This document shows positions 7,163 through 61,526 of a stretch of 64,000 nucleotides of DNA, piece after piece (positions within the stretch are counted from its first letter, which is position 1; each line of letters starts with the position of its first letter). The notes under the pieces were generated by a model. That model searched no databases. It saw only the letters and a program-made list of their open reading frames with translations, and was not told the origin of the DNA. The stretch covers positions 52,018,001 to 52,082,000 of the forward strand of contig OX597815.1 in the NCBI GenBank assembly GCA_951406725.2. The letters run 5' to 3'. This DNA is from Octopus vulgaris (taxonomy: Eukaryota). Both the position numbers and the translations under genes were made by a program.

Positions 7163-7393
7163 TATTTCTTTATTACCCACAAGGGGCTAAACATAGAGAG
7201 GACAAACAAGGACAGACAAAGGGATTAAGTCGATTACCTCGACCCCAGTGTGAAACTGGTACTTAATTTATCGACCCCAAAAGGATGAAAGGCAAAGTCG
7301 ACCTTGGCAGAATTTGAACTCAGAACATAATGGCAGAGGAAATACAGCTAAGCATTTTGCCTGGCATGCTAACGTTTCTGCCAGCTCGCTGCC
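7163..7393 (-). mobile_element. tRNA-derived SINE family B (CORE-like), 13-bp TSD
   Basis: TSD ttactatatttct at 7150-7162 and 7394-7406; B-box-like gagttcaaattc on the minus strand. Confidence 0.9.
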
Positions 7394-7490
7394 TTACTAT
7401 ATTTCTGTTGAAATACACAGCTAGTCTTTCAATAAGTTTTGAAAATAATGCAGAATTTATTAAGATAACTTTGTGATTATTAAGCTGGTG

Positions 7491-7699
7491 AGGTGGTGAG
7501 CTGGCAGAAACATTAGCATGCTGGGTGAAATGCTTAGTAGTATTTCGTCTGTCTTTACGTTTTGAGTTCAAATTCTTCCAAGTTTGGCTTTGCCTTTCAT
7601 CCTTTCGGGGTTGATAAATTAAGTACCAGTTGTGTACTGGGGTTGATCTAAATGACTGCCTCCATCAAAATTTCGGGCCTTGTGCATAGAGTAGAAAAG
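7491..7699 (+). mobile_element. SINE family B, 12-bp TSD
   Basis: TSD attaagctggtg at 7479-7490 and 7700-7711; central gcctttcatcctttcggggttgataaattaagtacc. Confidence 0.9.
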
Positions 7700-8817
7700 A
7701 TTAAGCTGGTGCTTGAAGCATAAACTAACATGATATTTTGATGGAAGGTTTTATTTAGATCACATTAAAAACAGGATGTTTGTATCATAGAGTCAGGGGT
7801 GGGCTCAAGTGGGTTGGTATCAAAAGAGTTAAATTGAAATCATTTAATACAATTTTATCTCAGAATCTTTTGTTGAGTTTGATTCCAAACACTAGGTTGA
7901 TAACAAAAATCTTAGTTATGTTGTTAAATCCTTCTAAATTCTCAATTAATATGAAATTAATTGAAACATAGCATATTTGATTAGAAATGTAGCCACAAAA
8001 GAATTAAGTTGTTCCCACTTACACTAAGACATAACATCATGCTGAAAATGTAAATATAATGATAGGTCTTAATATTTTCCCTGACAAAAATGCTTGATAA
8101 CTTATCCAATTGATCTTTGGTTATGTGTTTAATTAATTTTATTCATGTTCTGCTATTAAATACTTGTTTTTCTGTAATAGCAAATGTATTGTCTTGACTA
8201 TCAATCACTTAATTCTTTAATACATAAATATATTGGATCTTCATAGCACGATTTTTTGGTTTATTTTTCTTCTACATTTAGAGCAGTTGTAGTGTTCTCT
8301 AAAATATTAATAATTAATTCACATATATAATTCACTTTTGCACCTGTTTGGGTTTTTAAGCTGTGGTTTGTTTCTGTAATTGTAATACTGCACCTGCTTA
8401 CAAACCATCTTTACTAGGTGATATATATCAGTGTGTGTGTGTATGTGTATCTGTCTGTCTGTCTGTCTATCTGTGTGTGTGTTGGCCGATGCCAGCGCCG
8501 CCTCGACTGGCTTCCGTGCCGGTGGCACATAAAATACACCAATCCGACCGTGGCCGTTGCCAGCCTCGCCTGGCACCTGTGCAGGTGGCACGTAAAAAGC
8601 ACCCACTACACTCATGGAGTGGTTGGCGTTAGGAAGGGCATCCAGCTGTAGAAACATTGCCAGATAAGACTGGAGCCTGGTGCAGCCTTCTGGCTTCCCA
8701 GATCCCCGGTCAAACCGTCCAACCCATGATAGCATGGAGAACGGACGTTAAATGATGATGATGATAAATATTACATTTCTAAATATCTCAGAGAGATATA
8801 AGCAGTAGTGGTACGAT

Positions 8818-9195
8818 AGAGTAGTTGTATACTGTTAACTTAATGAAGGGAATCACACCACTGCTATTTAGCTCTAGGAAGCATCAACGCTACCTGTCAG
8901 CCTTGACACATTTCCTGTGTCCTTATGTTTACCAGGGGGAGACAAGCACCCCCACTCAGCTAAACCTGCATCCAGAGACTAGTTTCTGAGTCTTGCTCGT
9001 CATCAGTCTGGAGTAGCATGGCCTGCTAGCTGGAGATGCAAGCTTAGCTGGGTGGGGGTGCTTGTCTTCCCCTTGTAAACATAAGGACACAGGAAATGTA
9101 TCAAGGCTGACAGGAAGCATTGATGCGTCCTTGGGCTAAATAGCAGTGGTGTGATTTGCTTCATGGGACTGTCACATTAAGTTGACAGTATACAA

Positions 9196-9202
<7 letters not shown>
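8818..9202. mobile_element. Fold-back element (155/168-nt arms) with a hammerhead in the loop
   Basis: 8818-8972 versus reverse complement of 9035-9202: by my count ~14 mismatches plus one 13-nt indel. Confidence 0.85.
8971..9012 (-). ncRNA. Minimal type-I hammerhead ribozyme motif (Penelope-type)
   Basis: Minus strand uccaga-CUGAUGA-cgag(caaga)cuca-GAAA-cuag-UC-ucugga: 6-bp stem I, complete core, GUC triplet, palindromic ACUAGU stem III; C.A mismatch at the base of stem II. Confidence 0.8.
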
Positions 9203-9254
<52 letters not shown>

Positions 9255-9257
<3 letters not shown>

Positions 9258-18541: not shown

Positions 18542-19589
18542 TGGGGCTTCTTTCTGCCTACCAAGTCCACTTTTCAAGGCTTTAGTTGGCACTTGCCCTA
18601 GGTGCCATGCTGTGGGACTGAACGCAGAACCATGTGGTTGGGAAGCAAGTTTCTTACCACACAGCCACACCTGCACCTATTTATAGAGGTTTCCTTATCA
18701 AACTCATTGGATGAACAGTAAATTGATGGGGCTGATATCAAGTTGCCATGACAATGTATAGTAAGTACCTGAATTTCAACTGAAGTATTGAAAAGTATTA
18801 AATACAGCAACAACTTTGATTGTTTTGACATTTGATCAAATGTATTCTAGCTGTGATTGTTCCACTATTTTCATAGGTGTGTAAGGATACATTTTCTGAC
18901 ACGTTCTTTATTTAAGATGGCCGAGTGTGATTTGAGAGATTTTGGTTGCTTTTGTAGTAGGTTGAATGACATTTAACTTAGAAATCTTCTTAGCTTTTAC
19001 CATAGCAGGCTTTGGTAGGCTGAACAAGGAGTATCCAAAGATAAGCTATCCAAACCAGGCTTTGGTGGTCTGCCTTTAAACTTCTATTTTTATATGACTG
19101 TCATTTTCATTTTTGTCTTAATTGTTATGTATTACTGGCAGAAATTTGTATGCAAGCAAATGAGGTAGAATAGAAAAATTTCAAATCTATAACTGCTAAA
19201 TATAAAGTTAAAGATTCTGACAAACTTATAAGTAAAGTGACTGTCTTTTCTGGAAAAGTAATTTGACTTATATAATTTTATGTAGCTGAAATGATACACA
19301 ATGAAAAATGGAGTCCCTGTGGTTTTGAGTTTCAAGCAATTTTGATGAATCAGACACACTTGACAATGTCAGCTATTGATACCTGATGCCTGTTCTAATA
19401 ATAACCAGATTTTGTTCCCACTCTAATTGTTGGATTGTCAAATATACAGCCACTTCACATTAAGAGGCAGTTTAAGGACATGAGAATTGAGTTTGTGATT
19501 CAGAGGGGAAGACCACCACAGCAGTGAAGTAAAGCACCACAGAGCACTGGAGTGGCTGGACTGTACCCACCCAAGACCCTGAGAACAAC

Positions 19590-21430
19590 AATCAGGTGAA
19601 AGGAAGGATTGCACATGCAATAGGGGTTAGTGTAAGAACCACCTTGAAGAACTACATAGTAAAGTTTAACAAGAAACTATACATGCTATATATGCAGGTT
19701 CAAGGTGTAGCCATTGGTGTCAGTGTAGCTGGAGATGTGGCTGGCCTCTTCATGACCTGGTGGGACAGAAAACTTAAGCAACCTGTAGCAGAACAGTCCA
19801 CAACTCTTTTACTATACAGTAGGTATGTAGATGACATTAATATCATAGTTAAGACCAACTCTAGTAATGGTAATGTAGAAACTGAGAGGAACATAATGGA
19901 GTGCATCCAGCAAGTAGTTAACCCCATTCATCTAAGTATCAAGGTAACTTGATAGGCACCCCAACAATAGAATTCCTGTCCTTGATACTGAACTTTGGCT
20001 AGAGAGTGTGAACAATAGAGTGCAGCTCCTCCACTCCTATTACATGAAACCCATAACTTCGAAATGTGTTGTTCACAAGAACTCAGCTTTGTCACACAAC
20101 ATGAAAATTAACATACTTAGATAGCAGACTTAGTTAGGATAATGAACAATGTGTCCCCACTATGCAAACCCTATGAAACGAAGAAACATGTACAGAACTT
20201 CATGCACTGCATGCAATTCTCTGGATACAACCAGAAAGATAGGATTCAGGTATACAGGGGAGCTAGAAAGAAGTTCGATAACATTATATGTCATGAAACC
20301 AATGGTACCTGCTCTAGATATAGAAGCAAAGACTGGATATAGAAGCAAAGAGCTTGTTACAAAGCAAACGGAATGAACACATGGTATAAAACTGACAAAT
20401 ATCAAGGAGTGATGTTTGTAGAGGCCACAGCCCATGGAGAACTAGCCCGTAGATTCAGGAAAGCTCTGAAAGAGACCAAACTCAACATAAAGATTATTGA
20501 ATAGCTAGTGAACTCCATCAGATCACAACTATGTAGGACATACCCTTTTGAGAATATTATACGCACCAATGATAACTGCATGGTATGTAGGATTAACCCT
20601 GGCAATAACTGTAGAACTAAAAATGTAGTCTGCAGCATAAGATGCATAGAAGGTGCTTGTAAAGGCATGAACAAGACATACATAGGGGAGACATCTAAGA
20701 GCATTGCAAATAGACTAAATGGACATTTGAGACAATATGACGACAAAAAACAGTCCTCCATACTCTATCAACATGCCAAGGACCAACATGGAGGCAACCT
20801 GGGTCAACTTGACACCTGCATTTTATCCAAGCACTCAAGGGACTCAACATTCAGACAAATACAGGAGTACGTCCTCATAAATGAAACATCCCCAGTACTA
20901 AATAGGAAATAAACATAGTAGGTAATCATACCCCCACACCCACAGTTTATATTTATATGCAGGAAGATTAGTTAGTGGGCTGTTATGTATGTATGTATAT
21001 GCACACGTATGTAGGCCAATGGATAAGAATGTAAACAGATAGACATACAGATGGATAGGTACATAGGTTATATGAACAGACAAGCACACATACACACACA
21101 TACATAAATGAAGACTGAAACACATGACCACATACATACACACACTTCACAGAAGGACATATATGGAGATACACATCCAGACATATGGAGGTACACATCT
21201 ATACATACAGACAGAGTACATAGTCACAAAAATCCATACATACACACAGAGACACACTCAGACATGCACACACAAAGAAACAGAAGTACACACATGCGCA
21301 AACAAACATACACAAAAAAACACACGTATATGAACACACAAACACGAACACATAAATGCGCAGAATACATGCATACAAACTTACACACATACATATATAC
21401 ATATGCACACACTCACATACATACATGCAT
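19590..21430 (+). mobile_element. Penelope-like element (RT + C-terminal GIY-YIG), decayed, with CA-rich tail
   Basis: GVAIG and YSRYVDDI RT motifs (19596..19952); CMVC..CRTKNVV..YIGETSKS..RLNGH..RQIQE..LNRK (20508..20912); tail shared with the copy at 59460-61526. Confidence 0.9.
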
Positions 21431-24639: not shown

Positions 24640-25050
24640 TTGTAAAGGTCTCACTTACATGAAACTGTTGGTAGCCTTGTTAATCCACAATATATATATA
24701 TATATTGTTGTATGCCAGTTTAGCCAATGAAGTCTGTAGACTACATTTCTAGCTTTACAGTTTGCTATTGGGCTAAATATAATACAGTTTCTATCAGTAC
24801 ATGGGGTTCTATTAAGAGGGTAGGTTCTACCGACTAGGGATTTAATAGAGTTACCTGGCCTATCTACAACCTTAATTCTTAGCTTAAGCTTGTCTAGGGC
24901 CCTTCTAAAGCAGTATACTAGTTCACCTCTAGGGGTGATGTTGACGAACATGACACTCTGGTATTTGTGGCTATCATTCCATGACTTGGCCTTCCCTGTT
25001 TTCTTCTTAGTCCTACATATATGTGAGTAGAAGATTGAAAAGGAACACAC
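24640..25050 (-). mobile_element. Penelope-like fragment (linker and start of GIY-YIG)
   Basis: YQSVMFVNITPRGEL..KVVDRPGNSIKSLVGRTYPL..C..NCKARNVVY, homologous to 20400-20640. Confidence 0.85.
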
Positions 25051-25120
25051 GAATTGATATATATGGAAAAAAAGTCAAGGTAGAAAATAGTAAAATAATT
25101 TTATAAAAAACATTTCAGTA

Positions 25121-30051: not shown

Positions 30052-30893
30052 AACTGAAAATAGATGGGTAAAGAAAAGAATGCATGGACAATTTCATAGG
30101 GATGTTGAAGACAGACAGAGAAAAAAGATGGCTGTGGATGACTTAAAGTGATTTAAAACTGGAAACAGAGGCTCTAATCTGTGCTGCCCAAGAGCAAGCA
30201 CTAAGAACAAACTACATAAAATACAGAATAGACAACACAGCAGAAAGTGATAAGTGCAGAATCTGTGGACAAAATGGTGAAACTGTATGGCATATTATCA
30301 GCCAATGTATGCCATTAGCCCAGAAGGAATATAAGAAATTCCACAACAATATAGCAAGGCTTGTCCATTGGATGCTTTGCAACAAGTATGGACTTGACAG
30401 AGCAAAAAATTGCTATGACCACAAACCTGAAGGCATCATCAAAAATGATAATGCAAAGATCCTGTGGGATTTTATGATTCAGTGTGGCCATGAGATAGAG
30501 AATAGGAAGCCAGACATAGTCTTAATTGAGAAAGAAAGCAAACTAGATATAGCATGCCCAGCTGACAACAAAGTATGCAGTAAGGAAGAAAGAAAAGTTG
30601 ATAGATATGACAGGTTAGCTTGGGATATAATGCAGTTGTGGTTGAGGAAAAAGGTGGTAGTAGTAGTACCAATAATTGTTGGAGCCCTGGGAACAGTGAG
30701 CAAAAATCTTGGGAAGTACATGGAACAAATAGGGGCTACAATAAGAGTGGAGGACTTGCAGAAAACAGCACTACTTGGAACCATTTGAATACTCTGGAAG
30801 GTGTTTGAAAAATATGAAGTGTTACCTTAGTCCACTGGTAGTGAACAGCTGACACCATAGTACATCTCCAGTGTTAGAAGCTGTGCAAAGGCA
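30050..30893 (+). mobile_element. Dong/R4-like RLE LINE 3' fragment
   Basis: MHGQF, AAQEQALRTNY, CRICG..HIISQC, KILWDF..RKPDIVL..DIACP..PIIVGALG..QKTALLGT; 3' UTR shared with 44960-45052. Confidence 0.92.
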
Positions 30894-35120: not shown

Positions 35121-35538
35121 CCCTTTAGAATTCAGATTACTCTGTTAAATGTAATGCTTATATAGTCATACTGTTTTGAATTAGTCATGTATTACCTTGT
35201 AGCTTTAAGATTTTGAAGATTTTGATTATGTGAACGTTCATTTTTAAAATGACAAAGTAGGGTAGATGTGAAAGGCAGGATCTGGTCGGTTTGAAAAGAA
35301 AATGGGTGTAAGATTTTGGCTGGATATTCTCTTACATGTTTCAGTCATTTGACTGCAGCCATGCTAGAACACTGCCTTCAAGGGTCTAGTTGAAGAAATC
35401 GACCCCAGGACTCATTCTTCGTAAGCCTAGTACTTATTTTATTGGTCTCCTTTGTTGAACTGTCAAGCAATGGCGGGGGAGACAAATACAGACACAAAGA
35501 CACACACATGAATGTATATACATACACACATACATACA

Positions 35539-35569
<31 letters not shown>

Positions 35570-36131
35570 GTATGTATGTATGTATGTATGTGTGTATGTA
35601 TATACATTCATGTGTGTTTTGTATACATTACGAAGAATGAGTCCTGGGGTCGATTTCTTCAACTAGACCCTTGAAGGCAGTGTTCTAGCATGGCTGCAGT
35701 CAAATGACTGAAACATGTAAGAGAATATCCAGCCAAAATCTTACACCCATTTTCTTTTCAAACCGACCAGATCCTGCCTTTCACATCTACCCTACTTTGT
35801 CATTTTAAAAATGAACGTTCACATAATCAAAATCTTCAAAATCTTAAAGCTACAAGGTAATGCATGACTAATTCAAAACAGTATGACTATATAAGCATTA
35901 CTATATAAGCATATATATATATGATATATGAATGTACATACATACACAAACACATATGACAAGCTTCTTTCAGTTTCCGTTAACCAAATCTACTCACAAG
36001 GATTTGGTCAGCCCAAGGCTATAGTAGAAGATACTTGCCCAAGGTGCCGTGCAGTAGGACTGAACCTGGATCCATGTAGTTGGGAAGTAAGCTTCTTACT
36101 ACACAACCATGCTGGTTTAACTGCTAAAGCA
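35121..36131. mobile_element. piggyBac-like MITE containing a family-A SINE (about 35327-36110, minus)
   Basis: 35121-35326 is the reverse complement of the MITE at 2345-2530; the other terminus gctaaagcattaa lies at ~36123-36135. Confidence 0.7.
35151..35901. repeat. Near-perfect inverted duplication, 274-bp arms, plus inner palindrome
   Basis: 35151-35424 = reverse complement of 35628-35901 (one mismatch seen, no indel); inner palindrome ~35502-35617 centred in (CATA)n/(TATG)n. Confidence 0.95.
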
Positions 36132-36479: not shown

Positions 36480-38895
36480 TGGACTAATTAACTTCCATTA
36501 CATTTAACTCCCATTAACTCAAGTCCACTTGAGCTAATTTCTGTTAACTCAAGTTCCTGCGACGATCATTAGACTCAAGGTCTTGAAGTCCAAGGGTCTC
36601 ATCTACTGCAGCCCCTTGGTCGATACACTTTTGGCAGGCATTGCCAAAAGGTTTAGGTCCCTCCTGGAGGATGAGGAATACCAGCTGGCTGCTGCCTTCT
36701 ATCCCAGGTTTTGCCTCATTTGGTTGGATAAATATGAAAACACTAAGGTTGCCATGGTGAGGAAAAGCATGGAAGGTAAGGTCAAGGAAGCCATGAAGCA
36801 GCATTCTGATGAACTGAGCAGCAACAGTGAAGGAAGAAAAAACAAAGAGGAGGATGACTTCTTCAGTGGTGTCACTTAGCCAAAACAGAGCAGCAGAAGC
36901 CACAGGTCACTCAAGGACAAGGCCCAGAATTTGGTCAAGACCTGGCTGGAGGCCAACTTCAAGGACTTTCTGACAGATGCTACTTTCTTGGGTGAGCAAG
37001 TGCTGGTGGACTTGTTCATCAAGTTCAACACAGCCATCCCCACCAGTGCTGCATTGGAACATTTGTTCTCTATGAGCAAGGACATCTTGAGGGTCAAGAG
37101 ATCATATCATCCCTGTCTGATGGAAACTTTGGTATGCTAATTTTCATGATGGGCAACATGCATCTCATGAACAAAGTGGAGAACAAGAAAAGGAAGAACT
37201 ATTAGGTTGTCAAGAAAGTTCTTGCGGTTTTTAACCTTTAAATTCAGATGCACATATCTCAGCTCAAACAAAACTTTATTAATTGAAATAAACACCATCA
37301 GAATCAACACACTTTTGCCAATGCAAAACAAATTTATTTATGTCATTAGCATAAAAATCCTGCATTCTGGTAGCGATGAAGTCGTTGAAGGCGTGTTTGG
37401 CATTGTCTTGGTTTTTGAAGCATTTCTCATGCAGGAAGTTGTTGAGATGCTTGAAAAATTAGTAGTCGGTAGGCGAGAGGTCTGGTGAGTATGGTGGATG
37501 AAGCAGAGTTTCATAGCCCAATTCGTTCAACTTCTGCAGGGTAAGTTGTGTGACGTGCGGCCGAGTGTTGTTGTGGAGAAGAATTGGTCCTTTTCTATTG
37601 ACCAATGCTGGCTGTTGTTGTTGGAGTTTCTTATGCATTTCATCCATTTGCTGACAGTACTTCTCCACAGTAATAGTTTCACCTGGATCCAAAAAGCTGT
37701 AATGGATGAGACCGGCCACAGACCACCAAGCAGTCACCATTACCTTCTTTTGGTGCAACTTTGGCTTTGGGAATTGCTGTGGAGCTTTATCAGCGTCCAA
37801 CCACTGAGCTGAGTGTCACTGGTTGTCGTAAAGAATCCACTTTCCATTGCAACTCACAATCCGGACGAGAAAAGGGTTGTTCTTGTTGCGTAAAAGAAGG
37901 GAAGACAACTCTTCAAAATGGCATTGTTTTTGGTTGTCATTCAATTCATGAGACACCCATTTCTCAAGTATTTTTGTTTTTCCAATCTCTTTCAAGTAGT
38001 TGGAAATTGTCATATATGTTACGTCTAATTCAGAAGCAAGCTCTCAATCAGCTGCGCGTGGATTGGCTTCCACTAAGGCTCTTAGTTGATCATTGTCAAC
38101 ATCCGATGGCCAACCTCTATGCTTATCATCTTCAAAACTCTCATCACCCACTACAAAATTTCTTGAACCACCATTGTGCTGTACGTTCACTAGTGGTTCC
38201 TGGGCCAAATGCATCATTGATATTGTGAGCTGTTTCAGCAGCTTTTCGGCCTAGCTTGAACAGGAATAAGAAAATTGTGCAAATTTGCTTTTATTCCATG
38301 TTGTATTCAACGTTCCAGAAAAAAAAATGGTCTAATTATTCAAAAAGAAAAAGAATAACACGATTAGATAGAGCGAAAAACGGGTTTTAAAATGCTATAT
38401 AAAGTCAAAGTAATTTAATGAAAATTAATTTGAAAATACATCATTTAAAACCAAAATTAAAAATTCTGCAAGAACTTTCTTGACAACCTAATAAATAATG
38501 TATATATTGTTTTTCATTTTTTTAAAAAATTTTTCTATGGCCACTTTATCAATAAATTTTTTTAGTTTAATACTAGTATTGTGTTTCAATTGAACTTTTA
38601 AAAGTTAAAACTATAAAATCAGCATTTTTAACTCTAAAGCAAAAAAAAAAAAAAAACCTTAGAAAGGCAAAAAAAAAAAAGGCTGATTTTATAGTTTTGG
38701 CACCTTTTTAGGTGGTTTTAGAGTAAAAACTGATTTTTGTTTTTTTCTATAATAAAAATTAATGTTAATGGTTTATTGATAACTTCCGTTATATTTTTAA
38801 AGAATTAACAGATTAACGGTTATTGAAGGTAACTTTTTGGTTAATGGATTAACAGTTAACAAAGTTAACTTTTTAATTACTGGTGCCCACCTTTG
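36480..38895 (+). mobile_element. hAT transposon 3' part, interrupted by a mariner
   Basis: LLAGIAKRF..AAAFYPRF; LFIKFNTAIPTSAALEHLFS..ILRVKRS (hAT dimerisation motif); gttaac subterminal repeats and terminus ggtgcccacctttg. No left TIR found. Confidence 0.75.
37202..38491 (-). mobile_element. Full-length 1290-bp mariner (Hsmar1/cecropia-like), pseudogenised
   Basis: Perfect 24-bp TIR ttaggttgtcaagaaagttcttgc, TA TSD; FKLGRKAAETAHNINDAFGPG, KWVSHEL, KWILYDN, HPPYSPDLSPTDY. Confidence 0.95.
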
Positions 38896-43370: not shown

Positions 43371-45052
43371 GAAAGGAAGTGGGTGGAGCCTCTTCATGTC
43401 CTGATTAATGATACATCTAATGATGGTGTCACAATAAAAATACTGGTAATTGTGCAACCTGATAATCGCTACTTCATATGAGTGACAATGAAAAAACAAA
43501 ATATCATGAATAATGGTGGTAATGAAATTGAAGCAACTGATGGTGAGGGTGTTGCACCTGGCAGGCTCAGAGATTCTGGTCCAGCTCCAGCCTGTTGATA
43601 TCCAGAAAGGGACCACCACTCATGGCATAGATGGAGAAAGCAAATTAATGCTGTTGTCATGGAGTGTTACTACCTGAGCAACCAGTAGATGAAAATGAGA
43701 TTGTTTCAACTCATGGAACAGAGACTATGTGATCAAGCAAGAGCAATAAGAAAAAATCGTTGGTTCATGGAAGTAGAGCTCGAAGCTATCAAAAGACAGG
43801 TCTTGGAAAATAGCAGCAGAGATAACGATGAAAAATACAGTTCTTACTAATAGAAGTAATCTCATAGCACAGGAAAGGAGCAGTGGTAGTTTACTTGATG
43901 AGAGACAAATAGATGATCTAAAAGAAGACAATAAAACTAATGGCGACATGACAGATGAACAAAAGGCAATCTAAGACAGAATAAAGGCAAGACTACTAGA
44001 GAATGATAGTGACATCATTTGCAACCTTAAAAAGGTTGATCGGTGGAAATTTCATGGAAGTGACAACAGAAAAGATCCATGGTGAAAGAGAAGAATACAG
44101 GCAGGGTTAGATAAGCTCTCGAAGGAAATTTCTGTGTTGGACTGAAAAGAGAAAGGGGAGCTTAAAAGTGAACAAAAACACAGGGTGCTGAAAAGAGAAA
44201 CGGGAGCTTAAAAGTGAACAAAAACACAGGGCGCTGTGTCCAAGGGGACTGCCTGTCCTCACTGATCCTTGTACTGTGCTTGATACCACTAACACTAATT
44301 CTGAAGAAAGCAAAAGCTGGGTATGTCTTCAAAGGCTGCCAACAAAAAGTCAACCATTTGTTATTCATGGATGACCTCAAACTTTATGGTAAAGATGAAG
44401 CCCAAGTCAGTTCCCTCGTTGCTATGGTGTATACTTTCAGTGCTGATATCAGAATGGAGTTTGGATTGAGAAACTGTGGTGTGTTAGTCTTGAAACAAAG
44501 CAAATTCAAATGTATGAACAGGGTATCGATACCATCAGGGGAAGTTATGAAGCAGATAAAAGAGATGGGCAATAAGGGGATTTTGAAAATAGATAAATTG
44601 ATGGAGAAAGAAATGACAGAAAAATTTAAGGTGGAGTACTTGCGCAGATTGAGACTGATCCTTAAACTGAAATTAAACGGACGGAATAAGACTGAAGCTA
44701 TCAACACCTGGGCGGTTTCACTCCTTGGATATGGTGCAGGGGTAATCGTATGGACAGTTGACGAACTAAACAGCTTAGACTGAAAGACAAGGAAGTTGCT
44801 ATCTAGATACAGGTCACTCCACCCAAAAAGTGACACAGACAGACTGTATGTACCAAGAAAAAGAGGGGTAAGAGGACTTATTGGATGTGAACACAGCATT
44901 AGAGCAGAAGAAAACAACATAGCATAGTATGTAAAAAGCGCTGCGCGAATACTCCGGAAGGTGCTCAAAAAATAAGAGGTGTTACCTTAGTTCACTGGTA
45001 GTGAACAGCTGACACCATAGTACATCTCCAGTGTTAGAAGCTGTGCATAGGC
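43371..45052 (+). mobile_element. Internally deleted Dong/R4-like LINE with both ends in (TAA)n
   Basis: N-terminal RWRKQINAVVMECYYLS and EQRLCDQARAI; RT QGDCLSSL, HLLFMDDLKLY, AINTWAV, RLYVPRKRGVRGL; 46-bp tandem duplication (44142-44233) at the deletion junction. Confidence 0.92.
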
Positions 45053-45845: not shown

Positions 45846-47549
45846 CATGCAATAACATTTTAAACAAATGAATTTGCAATTTGCTTGACTTATCTTTCAA
45901 ATCATTTAATTTTTTTAATGAGCCCTTTAGTGTAAATGACTGATGGTGCAGATATTGTGTGTCTCTTAGTAAACCATACAGTCCACCATGTATGCGTCAC
46001 TTTTAAGGATATTGTAAGGTGTATAAATAGGATTATTACTTTTACAAAAATTCTCCTGCTGGTAAGTTTATTTATAATTGTGTAGAAACAAAGATAAATT
46101 TCCAGGAGATTCCACCACCTACATATGACCAGTGACATCTAGTAGTAAACAGTGGCAGAAATAACAACTTGTAGTCGACAAAGATAATGGACAGGTAGTC
46201 AAACTGAAAATAAAATGATCAGGGAAAATGCCAGCAGAAGTGAAAGCTAATAAATTATTGATGGAACGTCCCCTGGAGAGAGTGAAGACACTTGTTATAT
46301 TCCAAGATCATCTTAAGTTAATCTACAGCAGCTATGTATGAAGGTATATACAATCGTTTCATTTAGTGTTTTAAAGTAATTGATATTTATAATTGCTGTG
46401 AAATAAACACAAGCCGTTATTAATATTCCAACCAATTATATCAATCTAGCATCTATCTTCTTGAAATTACCATAACGATATATCTAATTAGTGTATATCT
46501 CATCTAATGGATTTATTGTTATGTTATTAGACTAATTTATTTACAGTAATGTCATTCTGAGGATGTATGTAATCTAGAAACACCAGTTATGTATAGAAAT
46601 GTAGTTTTTGATCTTTGTTGTACTTTGAGAGGGTCATATACATATATATATATATATATATAACACATCAGTTCTAGCCAAACAATATATATATATATAT
46701 ATATATATGTAAGCCACCACAGTATATAGTAGCTGAATACTCTATGCTATTAGTTGTGGAAGGTGATTAAGTATATTTTCTCTGTGTGAAGTGATCAACA
46801 AATTGTGATCAGGAAATTGTGATCAACAAATTGTGATCAGGAAACACTGCCTCCTTTTCAAATAATTAGAATTATTTCAGTACTTGTCATTCATGCTGTA
46901 TGAGCATAAATTATAGACATATATATCTTTTATACGTTTTTATACATCTTTTATCTTTTATTGGTTTCAATGATTGGTCAGTGATGATACTGGGGAACCA
47001 CCTTGAAGGGTTTAGTCAAACAAATTGACCCCAATATCTAGTTTTAAGTTTGGTATTTATTCTATTTGTCACTTTTACTGAACTGCTTGGTAATGGGGAT
47101 GTAAACAAACCACTGCAGATTGTTAAGCAGGAGTGGAGAACAAACACAAATACAAATGCACATTCACATCTTCTCCCTCCCCTACACACACATAGAGAGA
47201 GAAAGCAGTCACCATGTTTTCTTCTGTAACTGCCAATTCTGAGAAGTGCAAGGTTATATAATTGAGCTTTTACCTAACACCCTGTTGAACCCCTAGTGCA
47301 AAACCTATTGGTAAGATTGGCTGTAATGGATATATAATACTCTTTTACTTCTTCTTTTAGTCATTTGACTGCGGCCATGCTGGAGCACCGCCTTTAGTTG
47401 AACAAATTGACCCTAGGACTTATTCTTTGTAAGCCTAGTACTTATTCTATTGGTCTCTTTTGCCGAACAGCTAAGTTACAGGGATGTAAACACACCAGCA
47501 TCGGTTGTCAAGCAATGTTGGGGGGACAAATACAGACATACAAACATAT

Positions 47550-47591
<42 letters not shown>

Positions 47592-47597
<6 letters not shown>

Positions 47598-48640
47598 GAT
47601 GCACAGGGGAAATAGACTCTACAGATACTCAGAAAACAGATTCCATCACACTCCAGCGGGAGAAACTAGAAGTAGTTGATAGTTTCCGCTACCTAGGTGA
47701 CCAAGTTAGTAGTGGAGGTGGATGCTCAGAGAGTGTCACCACTAGAATACGAATAGCCTGGGCAAAGTTTAGAAAGCTCCTACCCCTACTGGTGACACAG
47801 GGTCTCTCACTCAGAGTGAAAGGTAGATTGCATGATGCATGTGTGCAAACTGCCATGCTTCACGGTAGTGAAACATGGGCTGTGACTGCAGAGGACATGC
47901 ATAGACTTTAAAGAAATGAAGCTAGCATGATCCATTGGATGTGTAATGTCAGTGTGCACACACGACAGAGTGTAAGCACCCTGAGAGAAATGCTGGACAT
48001 AAGAAGCATCAGATGTGGTGTGCAAGAGAGACGTTTGCGTTGGTATGGTCATGTACTGCGGATGGATGAGGAGAGATGTGTGAAGAAGTGCCACTCCCAA
48101 ACAGTTGAAGGTATCAGGGGGAGAGGTAGACCCAGGAAGACATGGGACGAGGTAGTCAAGCATGACCTTCGAACGTTAGGCCTCACAGAGGCAATGATGA
48201 AAGACCGAGATCTCTGGAGATATGCTGTGACTGCAAAGACTCAGCCTGCTTCCTGCACCAGTTTTACATAGCCCCAGCCCATCCAAAGTACCTTGGATTG
48301 CAGAACGACCTGCTGTGCTTACCTTGGATCGTAGGGTGACCTGCTGTGCTTGAGGAGACCTATTGAGTCAAGTACATCAATATCAAAATAAATACCAAAT
48401 GGAAATTGTAGTTACGATGCCTGTGCCGGCGGCACGTAAAAAGCACCATCTGAACATGGCTGATGCCAGCGCTGCCTTGACTGGCTTCTGTGCCTGTGGC
48501 ACATGACCTGCTGTGCTTGAAGAGACCTATTGAGTCAAGTACATCAACATCAAAATAAATAACAAATGGAAATAATAGTTGTGATACCTCTGCCAGTGGT
48601 ACGTAAAAAGCACCATCCGAACGTGGCCAATCCCAGAGAT
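47592..48640 (+). mobile_element. 5'-truncated RTE LINE
   Basis: LEVVDSFRYLGD..RIRIAWAKF..HGSETW; RRLRWYGHVLRM..GRGRPRKTW; duplicated 3' UTR modules. Confidence 0.93.
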
Positions 48641-48726: not shown

Positions 48727-51270
48727 CATATATATGAAATAGGCTTCCACACAGTTATTATAATCACTTACAAGTCATTGACTGGCTTCTGTGACGGTGG
48801 CATGTAAAAAGCACCATCCAAACATGACCGATGACAGCTCCGCCTTGACTGGCTTCTGTACAGGTGGCATGTAAAAAACACCAACTGATATTGGCCACTG
48901 CCAGCCACCCCTGGCACCTGTGTCAGTGGCACGTAAAAAGCACCCACTACACTCACGGAGTGATTGGCGTTAGGAAGGGCATCCAACTGTAGAAACACTG
49001 CCAGATCAGACTGGAGCCTGGTGCAGCCTCCTGGCTTACCAGACCCCGGTAGAACCGTCCAACCCGTGCTAGCATGGAAAATGGATGTTAAACGACGATG
49101 ATGATGATGATGATGATGATAGATATACATATATATGAAAGGCTTCTTTCAGTTTCTGTCTACCAAATCCACTCACAAAGCTTTGGTTGGCCTGATGCTT
49201 ATAGTAGAAGACACTTGCCCAAGGTGCCATGCAGTGGGACTGAACCTGAAACCATGTAGTTTCGGGTATTAATTTTGATAATTTGGAATAAGAATTGTAG
49301 GTATTAATTTTGATAATTTTAATATTTAGTCCTATATGTACATATTGTGGATAATGTCATTCAATGATGATTGAGTTGCTTGAGGGTGATTCTGTCTCTT
49401 AAACCTACCTATCTATCAGTTTCGTCTACCAAATCCACTTACAAAGCTTTGGTCAGCCTGAGACTACAGTAGAAGACTCTTGCCCAAGGTACCACACAGT
49501 GGGACTGAACCTGAAACCATGTGGTTGTGAAGCAAGCTTCTTACCACACAGCCATGCCTGCACCTATATATGTTTTTACTTTAAATCAAGTTTGGTTGTA
49601 AACTGAAATGGCTTATACAACATGGAACCTTAAAAGCTAGAAATCTGGTTGGACCCTAACTCACACCTCTTGGTTGACATTTTGGTGCATTGACCACTAT
49701 GCTACATGTATGTTTACTGAGATGATTCCATATATTACTTGAATGTACATCAGTCATTAAGATCATATTTTTCATACTTGCACACATGTGTCATCCTCTC
49801 AAAGTTTTGTTTACTTTCATTAATCACAAAGATTTGATGGATTGGATTTGCTTTCTTATTCTTTGACCCAAAAGTGGTAATCTTTCATCAAATTGATTGC
49901 TGTTGTCTGAAGAAGATATAAATAACTTCCTTTTCGATCTATAAATTTAAACTGCATCAAATAATTTTGTTATGTTTGGAGGAACAATTGGAGAAAGAGT
50001 ACAGCAGAATTTATTTCTAAGAAGATGATAGCTTATGGTATCACTACTCAGAGTTTCTTGCTATCTGCAATTGTTTAGACAATAACAAGATGCTGCCTGA
50101 GTAATTAAGTAAAGGTAATTAAGTAATTAAGTAAATCATACATAGCTGTATGATTACGGAGTTTCTTTTGAAACCACATGATTTCTGTTTGATTCCATTG
50201 CACAGAATCTTGAGAAATGTCTTTTACCTTTTATTATAGCTTCAGATTGACTGAGATCTTGAGTAGAATTTGGTAGATGGAAACTGTGCAGAAACCTGGT
50301 ATGTGTATGCATGTGTGTGTGTGTGTGTTTGTGCTTATACTGGGTGTGTGGATAGTCTAACAGCTATTGGCTAAGCTGACAAGAGGGTCCACTAACCTCA
50401 TTTCATCTACTCTTCTATTCCTGCGCAGATCATAAACACCTATTAGTTCTTTTCATTATCCTGTCTATTTCAGTACCATGTCATCATGTAAATATAATTT
50501 TCAATAGTTTTGTCTTCCTTGTTATTCCCTTAAGATAACCTTAGTTCATGTATTTCCTTAACTGCAACATATTCATTGATCCATTCATGTATTAAAGTTT
50601 TATCACACAGTCACTTATTACTCTGATTTTGTCTTAGATTGTCTGACCGAAAACTCTCAGATTTCTTAATTCTATTTTACTATTATCAACATTCGCTGTC
50701 TCGTTAAATTATGCTACGCAGATCCCAAAATAATATTTTTCTCCCTTGTGTTCTTGCCCACTTCCCCCCTCTCTCTCTCTAGCTCACTCTGTCTATCTGT
50801 CTCTCTCAGCCTCACCTTGTCTGTCTGTCTGTCTCTCTCTCAGCCTCACTCTGTCTGTCTCTTGCTCTTTCGATTACCACTCGCTTCGCCAAGACTTCCT
50901 CCACCAGCACCAGCATCACCACCACCAGCACCATCAGCACCAGTACCAGCACTAGCACTAGCACCACCACCACCCTATATAAACCAGCGCAAGCAGAAGA
51001 TGCTCTCGTCTAAACTTCCTAGTTTGCGGTGCGCCCGAACTCCCACCCCCTCCCACTGCACCGGAAGTTCCTATCCTTTGTCATCCCTTAGTTGTCTCCC
51101 ATGAACACTTCTAAAGGCTTTACGCCATCCCCACCCCTACTTAGGGTTATCTCCTATGTTAGGTAGTGATCATATAGTGCAAAAATATGATAGTGTAGTG
51201 TATGCAGGTTGAACTGAATGCTAATGTTTGTTTATGAATTCTGTCAAATGCGAGCTTTCTTTTCAGGTAC

Positions 51271-54200
51271 ATGAAGTTACTGTCCCCCGTCCCAGGGTCT
51301 CAAGGGGCCCATACCTCCCACACCCTCTGGGTTGGCACTCTCAACGTTGGCACACTGAAAGGTAGGTCTGGTGAGATTGTTGAGATGCTTGAACAGAGGT
51401 GTGTCGATATGTGCTGCATCCAAGCAGTAAGGTGGAGAGAAGGTTCCGCTAGGTTCCTCACCTGCAAAGAACACAGTTACAAGATTTTCTGGGCAGGGAA
51501 CACTGACAGGGTTGGGGGCGTGGGTATACTTCTTGCTGAGAAATGGGTGGATAAGGTAATCGAGATAGTCAGAGTATGCAACAGAATACTTAAGATTAGA
51601 TTAGTGCTTCATCATGGGTTAGCAACCATTATCTCGACCTGTGCCCCTCAGCCGGGGCTACCTGATGGATAAAAAAACCGATTCTATGACACCTTCTTGC
51701 AGACAAGCTCGTTGACGAATGACAGGGACCTTCTCTTTGTGGCTGGTGACTTCAATGGACATGTTGGACAACATACAAGGGGCTTCTATGGCATACATGG
51801 AGGCTAAAGTTATGGTTCCCAAAAGAAGGAGAGAACCAGGCTGCTGGAGTTCTGTGATGCAAATGATCTTATGGTTTGCAATACTAACTTCAGGAAACAT
51901 GCCAGTCACCTAGTCACCTACCTTCTGGCAGACACGCTAGCCAAATTGACTACATCCTTGCCAGAAAAAGGGATAGATGGCTGCTTATAAATGCCAAAAC
52001 CTTCCCAAGTGAAGAATGTACCCCACAACATAGACTGGTAGTTAGTGACGTTAGGATCAGGGCTAAGTGGATGCCCAGAAGACCAACATGGAGGAAAAGG
52101 GTCTGGAAGCTTAAAGATCCTGCAAATGGACAGAGATTTAGAGACATACTACTCGAAGCCTTTGACGAAATAGAAGGGGATATAGCTTCATATGGTGTAG
52201 AAGACAACTGAAGGTGTCTACAGGACAACCTGCTGAGAGCCACTGACCAGATATGTGGATGGTGCAAAGTCCCCTCTCGACCCAAAATAACGTGGTGTTG
52301 ACGCAATGTTGTTGACAGGGCTGTTAGAGGAAAGAAACAGGCTTGGAAGGACTGGAAGAACGGTGGTAGCAGGGAATTGTATCAGACTGCCAGAAGGGAA
52401 GCTAGGAGACAGGTTTATTTAGCCAGAGGGGAAGCGGATAAGAAAAAATTTGCCAATGTTCTGCCCTGTGAGGACAAAGAGTTGAGATATTTCGTGTTGC
52501 AAGACAGTGTGTGAGAGAGAATCGTGATGTAGGAGAGAAATGTGTCCGCATGGATGATGGTTCTCTTGCACTAAATGAGCCTGCAAAGAGAGAAGTTTGG
52601 AGATACCACTATGAAAGGTTGCTCAATAAAGTAAATGAATGGGAGAAAGAGAGTCTGCCGAATGTTGACCCAACAGAGGGACCAGCTATCCGAGTTGACA
52701 GTACCTTGGTAGATAAAGCAATTAAGAGTATGAAGACAGGGAAAGCCCACAGCCCATCAGGAATTACTGCAGAGATGCTCAAAATATCTGGCAGTGTCGG
52801 CTATAGCCTAGTCACCCATATAGTTAACCAGGTGATACACAAAGGAGTCATACCCAATTACTGGTGTAGCAGCACCATAGTCAACTGCTACAAAGGTAAA
52901 AGTGACGCTTTAGATACAAATAATTACAGAGGTATCAAGTTGTTGGATCAGGTAATGAAGGTCACGGAGAGGGTCATAGCCTAACTAATTAGGGAGAGAG
53001 TTAGTTTAGATGAAATGCAGTTTGGGTTCATACCAGAGAAAAGCACCACTGATACTATATTTCTGGTAAGACAGCTGTAGGAGAAATACCTAGCCAAAGA
53101 TAAACCTCTGTACCTGGCTTTTGTTGACATGGAGAAAGCCTTTGACAGGGTCCCCCGATCCCTTATCTGGTGGTAAATGAAGAAAATAGGGAGAGATGAA
53201 TGGTTAGTGAGAGCTGTGCAAGCCATGTACAGGGATGCTGTCAGTAAGATGAGGGTTGGCAATGAGTGCAGTGAAGAATTCCGGGTAGAGGTAGGGGTCC
53301 ATCAAAGTTCAGTCCTCAGCCCCTTCCTATTTATCATAGTCCTCCAGGCAATAACAGAGGAATTCAAGACAGGATGTCCCTGGGACCTCCTCTATGCTGA
53401 CGACCTTGCTCTAATTACTGAGTCACTATCAGAACTAGAGAAGAAGTTTCAAGTATGGAAACAAGGATTAGAATTGGAGGGCCTTAGAGTCAACCTAGCT
53501 AAAACCAAAGTCCTAATAAGTAGGAAGGCAGGAAAACCACAAATCCCTTCAGGTAGATGGCCCTGCTCGATCTGTAGAAAAGGCATAGGTAGAAACTCTA
53601 TAAGATGTACCTAGTGTAAGCTATGGACACATAAGAGGTGCAGCAATGTCAAAGGAAGGCTAACTAGGAAGATAGTTTTTGTATGTGGCAGATGCTCAGG
53701 TGCTATAAACACTGAAAATGTGAAGAGAACAGCTTCTGTCACATTCCAGGGAGAAAAACTAGAAGTAGTTAATAGCTTCCGTTACCTAGGTGACCAAGTC
53801 AGTAGTAGGGGAGGGTGCACTGAAAGTGTAATTGCTAGAATAAGAATAGCCTGGGCAAAGTTCAGAGAGCTCTTACTTCTACTGGTGACAAAGCGCCTCT
53901 CACTCAGAGTTAAAGGTAGACTGTATGATGCATGTGTACAAACAGCCATGCTACATGGTAGTGAAACTGCTGAGGACATGTGTAAGCTCACAAGGAATGA
54001 AGCCAGTATGATCTCATGGATGTGTAATGTCAGTGTGCATACTTGACAGTGTTAGTAGCTTGAGAGAAAAGTTGAACCTAAGAAGCATCAGATGTGGTTT
54101 GCAAGAGAGACGACTGCGCTGGTATGGTCATGTGGTGAGAATGGATGAGGATAGCAGTGTGAAAAAGTGCTACACCCTAGCAGTTGAGGGAACCTTTGGA

Positions 54201-54881
54201 AGGGGTAGACCCAGGAAGACCTGGGATGAAGTGGTGAAGCATGACTTTCGAACTTTAGGCCTCACCAAGGCAATGACTAGTAACTGGGACCTTTGGAAAT
54301 ATGCTGTGCTTGAGAAGACTTGGCAAGCCCAAGTGAGACTCTCTTGGCCTATGCCAGGGGTGTAACCAGCCCACTTATGAGTACCTTTCTTTCATTGGAC
54401 ACTAAACTTTGCTTGCGAAGACCTGTTGAGGCAAGTGAATTCAAAATCGAAATCAAATTCGATAACTGGCATCTGTGCTAGTGGAGCATGATTGTTGCCA
54501 GAGCAACAAACTAGCCTCAATGCTGGTGGCATGTAAAAAGCACCATTTGAGAGTGATCGTTACCTTGCTGGCACTTGTACTGGTGGCATGTGAAAAAACA
54601 TTCGAGCGAGGTCGTTGCCAATGCCGCTGGACTGGCTTCTGTGCAGGTGGCACATAAAAAGTACCAATTGAGCATGGCCATTGCCAGTACCACCTGACTG
54701 GCCCTCGTGCCGGTGGAACGTAAAAGCACCCACTACACTCTCGGAGTGGTTGGTGTTAGGAAGGGCATCCAGCTGTAGAAACTCTGCCAAATCAGATTGG
54801 AGTCTGGTGCAGCCAGTCAAATCGTCCAACCTATGCTAGCATGGAAAGCAGATGGTAAACAATGATGATGATGGTGATGAT
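51271..54881 (+). mobile_element. Near full-length RTE LINE (APE + RT), pseudogenised; 5' UTR probably extends upstream to ~50700
   Basis: VGTLNVGTL..CCIQ..GVGILL (APE), AGDFNGH, YRGIKLL, FVDMEKAFD, GVHQSSVLSPFLF, LLYADDLAL, FRYLG, RRLRWYGHV, (GAT)n tail; many in-frame stops. Confidence 0.96.
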
Positions 54882-59459: not shown

Positions 59460-61526
59460 ATTCAAGCTGCATTCTTTTTGTTTGTTTGTGTGCGCATGTG
59501 TATGAGTCAATGTGCACACACATACACATGTATGTATGTATGCATGTATGTATGTGTGTATGTGTATATATATATATATATATGTATGTAAGTTTGTATT
59601 ATGTATGTATTCTGCATATTCATGTGTTTTTGTCATCATCATCATCATCATCGCTTAACGTCTGTTTTCCATGCTGGCACGGATTGGACAGATCAACTGG
59701 GGTCAGGGAAGCCAGGAGGCTGCACCAGGCTCCAGTTTGATCTGGCAGTGTTTCTACAACTGGATGCCCTTCTTAACGCCAACCACTCCAAGAGTGTAGT
59801 GTGTGCTTCTTTTTATGTGCCACCGGCACAGGGGCTAGAAGTGGTTGGCATTGACTACATTTGGATGGTGGTTTTATATGCCACCGGCACAGGAGCCAGA
59901 GGGGGCTGGCATCGACCATGTCTGGATGGTGCTTTTATGTGCCACTGGCATGGGAGCCAGAGGGGGCTGGCATCAATCAAGTTTGGATAGTGCCTTTTAT
60001 GTGTCACCGGTATGGGAGCCAATGAAGGCGACGCTGGCATCAGCCATGTTTGGCACTGGCAGTGTTTTTACGTGTGTGTGTGTGTGTGTGTGCCTCTGTC
60101 TCCTTGTGTGTACATGTCTGAGTATGCGTGTGTGTGGGGAGAGGGGGGTTGTGACTATGTACTGTGTCTGTATGTATGTATGGATCTGTACCTCCATATG
60201 TGTGGACAAGTGTCTCCATATGTGTGAAGTGTGTGTGTATATGGTCATGTGTTTCAGTCTTCATTTGTGTATGTGCGTATGTGTGCTTGTCTGTTCATAT
60301 AACCTATGTACTTATCTTATTTCTTTATTGCCCACAAGGGGCTAAACATAGAGGGGACAAACAAACAAAGACAGACAAAGGGATTAAGTCGATTACATTG
60401 ACTCCAGTGTGTAACTGGTACTTAATTTATCGACCCCGAAAGGATAAAAGGCAAAGTTGACCTCGGCGAAATTTGAACTCAGAATGTAATGGCAGATGAA
60501 ATACTGCTTAGTATTTCGCCCGGCATGCTAACGCTTCTGGCAGCTCGCCACCTTAAACCTATGTACCTATCTGTCTGTATGTCTATCTGTTTATTTTCAT
60601 ATCCATATGCCTTCATACACGTGCATATACATATACACATATACACACACACATACATTTATCTATCTATTTATCTATCTTTCTACATAACAGCCCACTA
60701 ACTATTCTACCTGTATATACATATAAACTGTTGGTATAAGGGTATGATTACCTACTCTGTATATTGCCTATTTAGTACAGGGGATGTTTCATTTATGAGG
60801 ACGTACTCCTGTATTTGTCTGAGGGTTGGGTCCTTTGGGTGCTTGGATAAGATGTGGATGTCAAGTTGATCCAGGTTGCCTCCATGTTTGTCCTTGGCAT
60901 GTTGATAGAGTATGGAGGACTGTTTTTTGTTGTCATATTGTCTTAAAATGTCCATTTAGTCTATCTGCCATGCTCCAAGATGTCTCTCCTATGTATGTCA
61001 TGTTCATGTCTTTACAAGCACCTTCTATGCATCTTATGCTGTAAACTACATTTCTAGTTCTATAGTTAATGCCAGGACTAATCCTACATACTGTGTAGTT
61101 ATCATTGGTGCATTTGGTATTCTCAAAGGGGTACGTCCTACATAGTTGTGATCTGATGGAGTTCCCTGGCTTTTCAACAATCTTAATGTTGAGTTTGGTC
61201 TCCTTTAGATCTTTCCTAAATCTACGGGCTAGTTCTCCATGGGCTGTGGCCTCTACAAACATCACTCCTTGATATTTGTTAGTTTTATACCATGTGTTCA
61301 TCCTATTTGCTTTGTAACAAGCTCTTTGTATTGTATTCCAGTCTTTGTTTCTATATCTAGAGCAGGTACCACTGGTATCATCACATAATGTTATCAAACT
61401 TCTTTCTAGCACCCCTGTATACTTGGACCTTTATCCTTCCGATCATATTCAGAGAATTGCATGCAGTGCATGAAGTTCTGTGCATGTTCCTTCATTTCAT
61501 AGGGTTTGCATAGTGGGGACACAACA
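59460..61526 (-). mobile_element. Second copy of the Penelope-like element with nested insertions
   Basis: ORFs 60933..61412 and 60752..60955 (NVVYSIRC..YIGETS..RQIQEYVLINETSPVLNR); interrupted by an RTE tail (59632-60065) and a SINE. Confidence 0.9.
60318..60555 (-). mobile_element. Family-B SINE with ~17-bp TSD
   Basis: aacctatgtac(t/c)tatct at 60301-60317 and 60556-60572; the site is single-copy in the sister element near 21055-21070. Confidence 0.88.

Follow-up and report, generated by a model that had tools for sequence, protein, structure and literature searches.

The window, i.e. the whole stretch of 64,000 nucleotides of Octopus vulgaris DNA analysed here (contig OX597815.1), is AT-rich animal DNA with many microsatellites and retroelement debris. 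It harbours a fold-back element whose inverted arms (~8815-8975 and 9030-9205) are identical in 150 of 165 aligned columns (90.9%), the differences being 14 internal positions and a 13-nt indel near the outer end, and whose minus-strand loop carries a hammerhead ribozyme motif (Table 1). As a whole, the element folds into one long hairpin (z -28.5), and its left arm has stops in all three frames. It is bordered by (GAT)n on the left and by (CT)17(TA)13 on the right, the latter being the likely insertion target, and no target duplication is readable. No second copy of the element was found inside the window. An earlier sequence-only reading had described an element of ~385 bp (8818-9202) with ~91% identical arms. 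The arms stand, whereas the start at 8818 does not, since family contigs and reads also cover 8776-8817. The observation of a fold-back hammerhead element is partly confirmed, and its first interpretation is partly supported by the evidence given below.

Table 1. Features of the hammerhead-bearing fold-back element and Penelope-like remnants in the window.
Feature	Position	Strand	Remarks
One-sided tail beyond the outer end of the left arm	8764..8817	-	Family contigs and RNA reads over 8776-8817
Left arm	8818..8976	-	Family sequence lying 3' of the predicted cut; a 13-nt piece of the family and the right arm is absent
Type I hammerhead motif	8971..9012	-	Core and stems, from descriptor search and pairing
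5' strand of the predicted stem I extension past an internal loop	9013..9024	-	Pairs with 8962-8969
Family bases at the upstream end of the direct copy, ahead of the ribozyme	9025..9039	-	Contigs leave the window behind 9039
Inverted 5'-truncated second copy	9035..9202	+	Head-to-head with the first copy; without ribozyme and tail
(CT)17(TA)13 microsatellite	9199..9257	.	Abuts the right end of the element
Penelope-like remnant, RT and C-terminal GIY-YIG	19533-20989	+	Broken
Penelope-like remnant, RT and C-terminal GIY-YIG	24655-25074	-	Broken
Penelope-like remnant, RT and C-terminal GIY-YIG	60684-61430	-	Broken

Other repeats in the window include remnants of one LINE family (51238-54365, 47417-48271 and 1-334), which we take to be RTE-like, with an RVT_1 domain at 53177-53611. 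For this reverse transcriptase remnant, 54 matches include named relatives from Octopus bimaculoides (84%) and from O. vulgaris (75%); one close relative stands in a bacterial MAG, probably owing to host contamination. Further pieces at 30147-30788, 44172-44783 and 37459-37815 comprise zf-RVT and RVT_1 domains (both under the cut-off) and a mariner-type transposase (Transposase_1, E 4e-28). Two inverted arrangements were also seen. A dispersed repeat forms an inverted pair at 7228-7397 and 7488-7657 (82% complementary, 90 nt apart), and a near-perfect inverted repeat of 274 nt (35151-35424 and 35628-35901, 203 nt apart) has a simple-repeat hairpin between its arms and part of a dispersed repeat inside them; it is either a very recent duplication or an assembly artefact.

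On the minus strand of the fold-back element, a 6-bp stem I (9012-9007 with 8971-8976), the core segments CUGAUGA (9006-9000) and GAAA (8986-8983), a stem II of three pairs (8998-8996 with 8990-8988) with C8999·A8987 at its base, and the palindromic stem III ACUAGU (8983-8978) together form a complete type I hammerhead, with all core nucleotides and a predicted cut between 8977 and 8976. A structured descriptor found this motif as its sole match in 128 kb of both strands. Among 400 dinucleotide shuffles, any match appeared in one, and a 6-bp stem I or palindromic stem III in none. The minus-strand hammerhead of the sequence-only reading is hence borne out: the motif with its palindromic stem III is genuine, and self-cleavage is its predicted activity. 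Rfam models give the motif no score, and no Rfam hammerhead match was present in one search (0/6 matches) or among the 150 of 207 matches listed in another. The conserved core CUGANGA / GAAA / UH is nonetheless there, and its 12 positions show no variant among the listed family rows. As to further traits of canonical type I hammerheads, a 6-bp helix I and a short palindromic helix III are both present, while in place of a 4-bp helix II with a Watson-Crick closing pair, the window and the family majority have three pairs plus C·A.

Past an internal loop, stem I is predicted to extend, with pair probabilities of 0.94-1.0 when the inverted arm is omitted from the folding; such an extension is also a trait of canonical type I motifs. 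With the long hairpin of this copy, by contrast, the predicted pair probability of stem I is 0.02 or less, and restoring the ribozyme fold would cost 5.6 kcal/mol with the inverted arm versus 1.7 without it. The hairpin is thus predicted to displace stem I, so that the conformational switch proposed from sequence would be the off state of one copy. An alternative pairing of 8971-8975 does exist here, but a hairpin that shuts stem I off in one insertion does not make a family-wide switch.

The evidence for a family comes from one alignment of public contigs and reads to 8776-9050 at 80% likeness, covering three DNA runs (X1-X3, with species labels A, B and C) and one RNA run, i.e. four of the 24 runs listed. 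Of these 24, 20 runs from 11 studies contain part of the stretch, none of them half its words and with no RNA run listed among them. The DNA runs yielded 1414, 2093 and 1737 family contigs. In the RNA run, 360 of 12.9 million records were family reads, which span the predicted cut and of which none is 99% or more alike. Since none of the listed pieces extends over the full stretch and the RNA reads stay below 99% likeness, the aligned pieces represent relatives and not this locus. The three DNA runs probably stem from other individuals or species, and their summed contig depth is no copy number. The claim of a non-coding high-copy family nevertheless stands, given 1414-2093 contigs per DNA run and no ORF: a high-copy, non-coding hammerhead family is real in all three species labels. 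Scans with the family pattern gave 0 matches in metagenome contigs, viral contigs and prokaryote genomes. As for the hairpin as a substrate of RNA editing, A>G changes were not in excess among the family reads, none of which is 99% alike. Starts or ends of RNA did not pile up in the one RNA run, where a fragmented library need not show this.

Variation within the family respects the ribozyme. The 39 variable places listed all lie outside the 32 core and stem positions (P about 0.004, calculated post hoc on the rows listed, with 55 more existing). Variation instead sits where hammerheads tolerate it: loop II has an insertion behind 8992, and both the base of stem II and the centre of stem III vary. 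At the latter, the rates of change of 8980 and of 8981 agree (27/27, 31/31 and 52/53 contigs; 69/72 of 130 reads), which turns the central UA into AU and thereby keeps the stem III palindrome. The predicted energy of the dimer duplex is -4.8 kcal/mol before and -4.6 kcal/mol after the double change, versus +0.3 and +0.9 with the single changes, by which the dimer helix is lost. These counts are marginal and not joint, and may reflect one inherited event. At the base of stem II, the family majority keeps A at 8987, with U as the listed alternative in 5-9% of DNA depth, in 44/120 reads and in 3/3 loose-end lines covering the position; 8999 is U in 19-37% of DNA depth, giving U-A. The family listing has no row with G on the 3' side of the stem II base, and the proposed cgag/cucg consensus is not confirmed. 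An ancestral G would be a top row and yet is absent, so that CpG-type decay does not explain the mismatch: the C·A pair is the family state. It resembles the case of the axolotl retrozyme hammerhead HHR_Amex2, which remains active in cleavage despite a U·U mismatch at the base of helix II (PMC7229834).

Beyond the outer end of the left arm, the family continues from 8817 to at least 8776 and, on this end only, forms a tail of about 50-52 nt. Its left edge probably lies at 8764-8766, abutting the (GAT)n end of a neighbouring repeat; the letters of an X2 contig resemble 8766-8775, and 8764-8775 lies beyond the aligned stretch. At the upstream end, 36, 34 and 30 contigs of the DNA runs and 21 reads, among the listed rows (430 others exist), depart from the window after 9039 and enter different AT-rich sequence. 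As contigs and reads align through 9039 before leaving, 9030-9034 is native upstream family sequence; at 9033, the listed alternative makes up just 8-28% of DNA depth. Matches to the upstream family motif in the window are at chance level (2 found, 1.66 expected). Loose contig ends also occur within the left arm, at 8843-8846, and 14 X1 contigs part from the stretch at 8992, followed by loose letters (median 242) that match nowhere on it. Where the two arms differ, the right arm has the family-majority base at 6/6 positions with a listed family row; eight more differences have no such row. The right arm also contains a short local palindrome (9168-9189) that includes the 13-nt piece absent from the left arm and adjoins an AC-rich stretch at the unit's 3' end. 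Together, they resemble the AC-rich stem-loop at which the anole element, as published, begins reverse transcription.

Four contigs from two of the three DNA runs carry head-to-tail joints of the family. Two of them join 9039 to 8776 (summed depth 487.5). In another, 9039 is joined to 8816 over 19 intervening letters (depth 100), and in the last, 9030 is joined to 8776 over 34 (depth 52.4). The 8816 end is the same place as the tail-less right end in the window. Behind 9039, the X3 loose-end consensus runs for 18 letters and then matches 8764-8775 at 10/12 positions. This match is post hoc; 18 of 63,988 places reach its level, and the three remaining consensus lines match at just 8/12. The unit is hence estimated at ~307 nt (276 + 18-19 + 13), or ~255 nt without the tail. 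Within the window, 8764-9039 holds no ORF, has stops in all three sense frames and a GC content of 43.8%, below the 45-50% used for retrozymes; the last ~18 nt of the unit lie outside the window. The joints suggest a closed, non-coding unit of ~300 nt, and we consider a non-LTR retrozyme its somewhat better than even explanation. The "retrozyme/MITE-like" label of the sequence-only reading keeps its first half, for which there is now a degree of direct evidence, and loses its second. Against a closed unit, the joints come from four contigs with unequal ends and would also fit the partial tandems of Penelope-like elements, and the long loose ends of the 14 X1 contigs are unexplained by it. Besides, no read joint closing the unit was found in the one RNA run, and the unit's folding does not exceed that of shuffles (z -1.17), unlike retrozyme circles, for which a high degree of self-pairing is described.

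Metazoan non-LTR retrozymes, as presented in PMC7229834 and 10.64898/2026.07.22.740005, share several features with the family: they are non-coding, have a GC content under 45% and a type I hammerhead of the canonical type, and occur in very many copies of head-to-tail units, likely of ~300 nt here. In line with this, canonical type I hammerheads sit in tandem units of 150-450 bp (PMC7229834). The octopus family differs in being known from contigs and reads without whole arrays, and in the arrangement seen in the window, where a near-full unit is followed by an inverted partial unit and carries a Penelope-type tail. The accessible text of these two sources describes no inverted insertions of metazoan retrozymes.

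Taken together, we read the locus, with a probability of roughly 0.55, as a single and likely dead insertion of a high-copy non-coding repeat that likely exists as a closed ~300-nt monomer (a non-LTR retrozyme), its fold-back likely having been built at insertion by a Penelope-type reverse transcriptase/endonuclease. The ribozyme motif and the family are real, and the insertion is of a known kind.

A strong rival accepts the same fold-back mechanism and takes the unit for the hammerhead-bearing end (pseudo-LTR) of a coding, autonomous Penelope-like element that was doubly 5'-truncated, the head-to-tail joints being ordinary partial tandems. We regard this as possible, at odds well short of even. 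The layout of the locus matches the published insertion unit (PMC8557442, PMC3846280), both opposite-strand pairs of motifs and single motifs from truncated elements have been described (PMC4209133), and the long loose ends of the X1 contigs are otherwise unexplained. Some Penelope elements also have a small palindromic helix III (PMC4209133). Like the pseudo-LTR hammerheads in that study, the octopus motif has CUGANGA followed by an extra base and then a G-C pair, and a palindromic helix III that implies cleavage as a dimer. Unlike most of them, it has an extra A or U before GAAA, which is seen in one row of the published alignment. In its overall geometry, it does not follow the minimal hammerhead of most Penelope pseudo-LTRs, reported to have a helix II of 7-8 bp, a helix I of 4-5 bp and no helix III. 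With a helix II of three pairs plus a variable pair, a helix I of six pairs with a predicted extension, and a helix III, it comes closer to the canonical hammerheads of PMC4209133. Moreover, the arm end and tail are not crossed by any open-frame start, in contrast to anole and rotifer pseudo-LTRs, which by published description include first codons (PMC11167929, PMC3846280).

The same rival gains from the presence, in the window itself, of Penelope-like elements with a reverse transcriptase plus a GIY-YIG domain at the C terminus. The remnants at 19533-20989 and 60684-61430 are 89-91% alike, also beyond the ORF, and full-length relatives of the local remnants exist. Their translations contain a CX4CXXC linker, which Craig et al. 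(PMC8557442) report for the Neptune and Nematis clades. However, none of the remnants resembles the unit at the DNA level (best local scores of 22-25 versus shuffled means of 23-24), and the two that reach the ORF end have no hammerhead in the next 700-880 bases. On these grounds, we rejected the local remnants as partner of the unit; the earlier claim of mobilisation by a local Penelope reverse transcriptase is supported as to the type of enzyme and not supported as to these copies. Nor did we find an ORF for reverse transcriptase and GIY-YIG attached to the unit in the window. A search for homologs of the remnants' endonuclease part returned 0/32 candidates, and related element DNA was found neither in viral contigs nor, with one protein as query, in genomes. 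One contig gave an alignment: this 2.7-kb contig, filed in a Desulfobulbaceae MAG and probably animal host DNA, carries a Penelope-like RT-endonuclease ORF (296-2292), behind which no hammerhead motif was found.

The inversion junction bears on a second alternative, which had been put forward by the sequence-only reading: a MITE-like fold-back family that contains a conformational switch, moves as a unit and has its second arm copied from the 3' cleavage product. The inverted arm had been thought to start at ~9030, in correspondence with the cut. However, 9030-9034 is mostly the family's own upstream sequence, and the strand switch lies inside GATGC (9035-9039, the reverse complement of 8968-8972), a 5-nt microhomology. 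That the junction is just 4-9 nt past the predicted cut, with gapped similarity (CTG..GATGC) to within 1 nt, that both pairings of 8971-8975 exist in this copy, and that RNA coverage extends to 9046-9050 with about one read (mean depth 0.8) all speak for such a family; we still judge it very improbable. Depth at 9046-9050 is 0 in all three DNA runs despite their 1414-2093 contigs each, and although such a hole proves nothing alone, four other opposite-strand joints (8898/9032, 8932/9019, 8943/9025 and 8952/9028; one contig each, depth 22-45) are all different. They omit 24, 33, 44 and 78 nt, so that 4/4 lie 24-78 nt from the cut, and their side lengths (33-86) appear to fit only the head-to-head geometry of the window. 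The junction of the window is not amplified in the runs aligned, and the many copies sharing arms and centre that define a MITE were not found. Since the joints sit at different places and 9046-9050 lacks DNA contig coverage, the inverted half seems to have been made anew each time. Besides, ribozyme-dead RNA of the anole element inserts normally, with no RNA ends at the cut (PMC11167929). Varied joints, microhomology and a junction seen in no DNA contig thus argue for a one-off Penelope-type insertion, rather than for a MITE-like family with fixed arms or a switch defined by cleavage. Equally improbable is that a direct copy gained its inverted arm later, by fold-back repair at the site or when another member of the family inserted independently beside it: the divergence of the arms would fit, as would the inverted duplication at 35151-35901, which shows that such events occur here, yet the right arm ends at the recurrent 8816 end of the family, without tail or flank, and other family copies have the same head-to-head geometry.

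For the reading of a retrozyme unit inserted by a Penelope-type enzyme, the following course can be proposed. The enzyme would nick AT-rich or microsatellite DNA and two cDNAs would be primed, one per strand, from internal start points ~50 nt apart (8764-66 and 8815-18). One cDNA may have run almost the full unit (to 9039) and the other stopped just short of the ribozyme, before both were joined head-to-head at the GATGC microhomology; the arms would then have drifted apart at their 14 internal sites. In tandem source copies, the ribozyme could cut as a dimer through its palindromic stem III, freeing monomers that could circularise. Published Penelope-like insertions have an adjacent inverted 5'-truncated copy, a one-sided tail of 30-40 bp and a bias for microsatellites (PMC8557442, PMC3846280), and Arkhipova et al. 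2013 favoured self-priming as the source of the inversion (PMC3846280). For the anole protein, nicking and extension of both strands have been described, with synthesis starting at two sites inside the RNA that delimit the tail (PMC11167929). Like insertions of endonuclease-positive Penelope-like elements in these three sources, the octopus element has a head-to-head inverted 5'-truncated copy, with a junction that varies between the window and the four other joints, a one-sided tail, two alternative 3' ends, a microsatellite border, a hammerhead 5' of the 3' end and partial tandems. It differs in that the unit lacks an ORF or ORF start and in its tail of ~52 nt, which is longer than described.

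No octopus hammerhead family or cephalopod retrozyme was found described in the literature as far as it was accessible, and supplementary lists may contain one; the available text of a 2026 repeat annotation of O. vulgaris lists Penelope-like families without using the word "ribozyme" (PMC13282606). Tentatively, and at slightly less than even odds, octopuses may carry an undescribed, very high-copy hammerhead retrozyme of ~300 nt with an insertion signature known only from Penelope-like elements, namely two internal start points ~50 nt apart, a one-sided tail, head-to-head inversions and microsatellite targets. Penelope elements have been proposed as movers of retrozymes from shared features, co-occurrence and trees, and arguments about which enzyme mobilises animal retrozymes still draw on co-occurrence and sequence kinship. 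Should the unit be no more than the terminal part of a coding Penelope element, this locus is a dead stump of the ordinary sort. If, on the other hand, the retrozyme reading is true, the locus would add evidence of a structural kind, going past co-occurrence and tree kinship, for Penelope enzymes as movers of animal retrozymes, and it would name two RNA sites to test in vitro, while the natural UA/AU swap in stem III offers a ready-made test of dimer cleavage. A retrozyme family with Penelope-specific footprints would make the mobilising enzyme testable.
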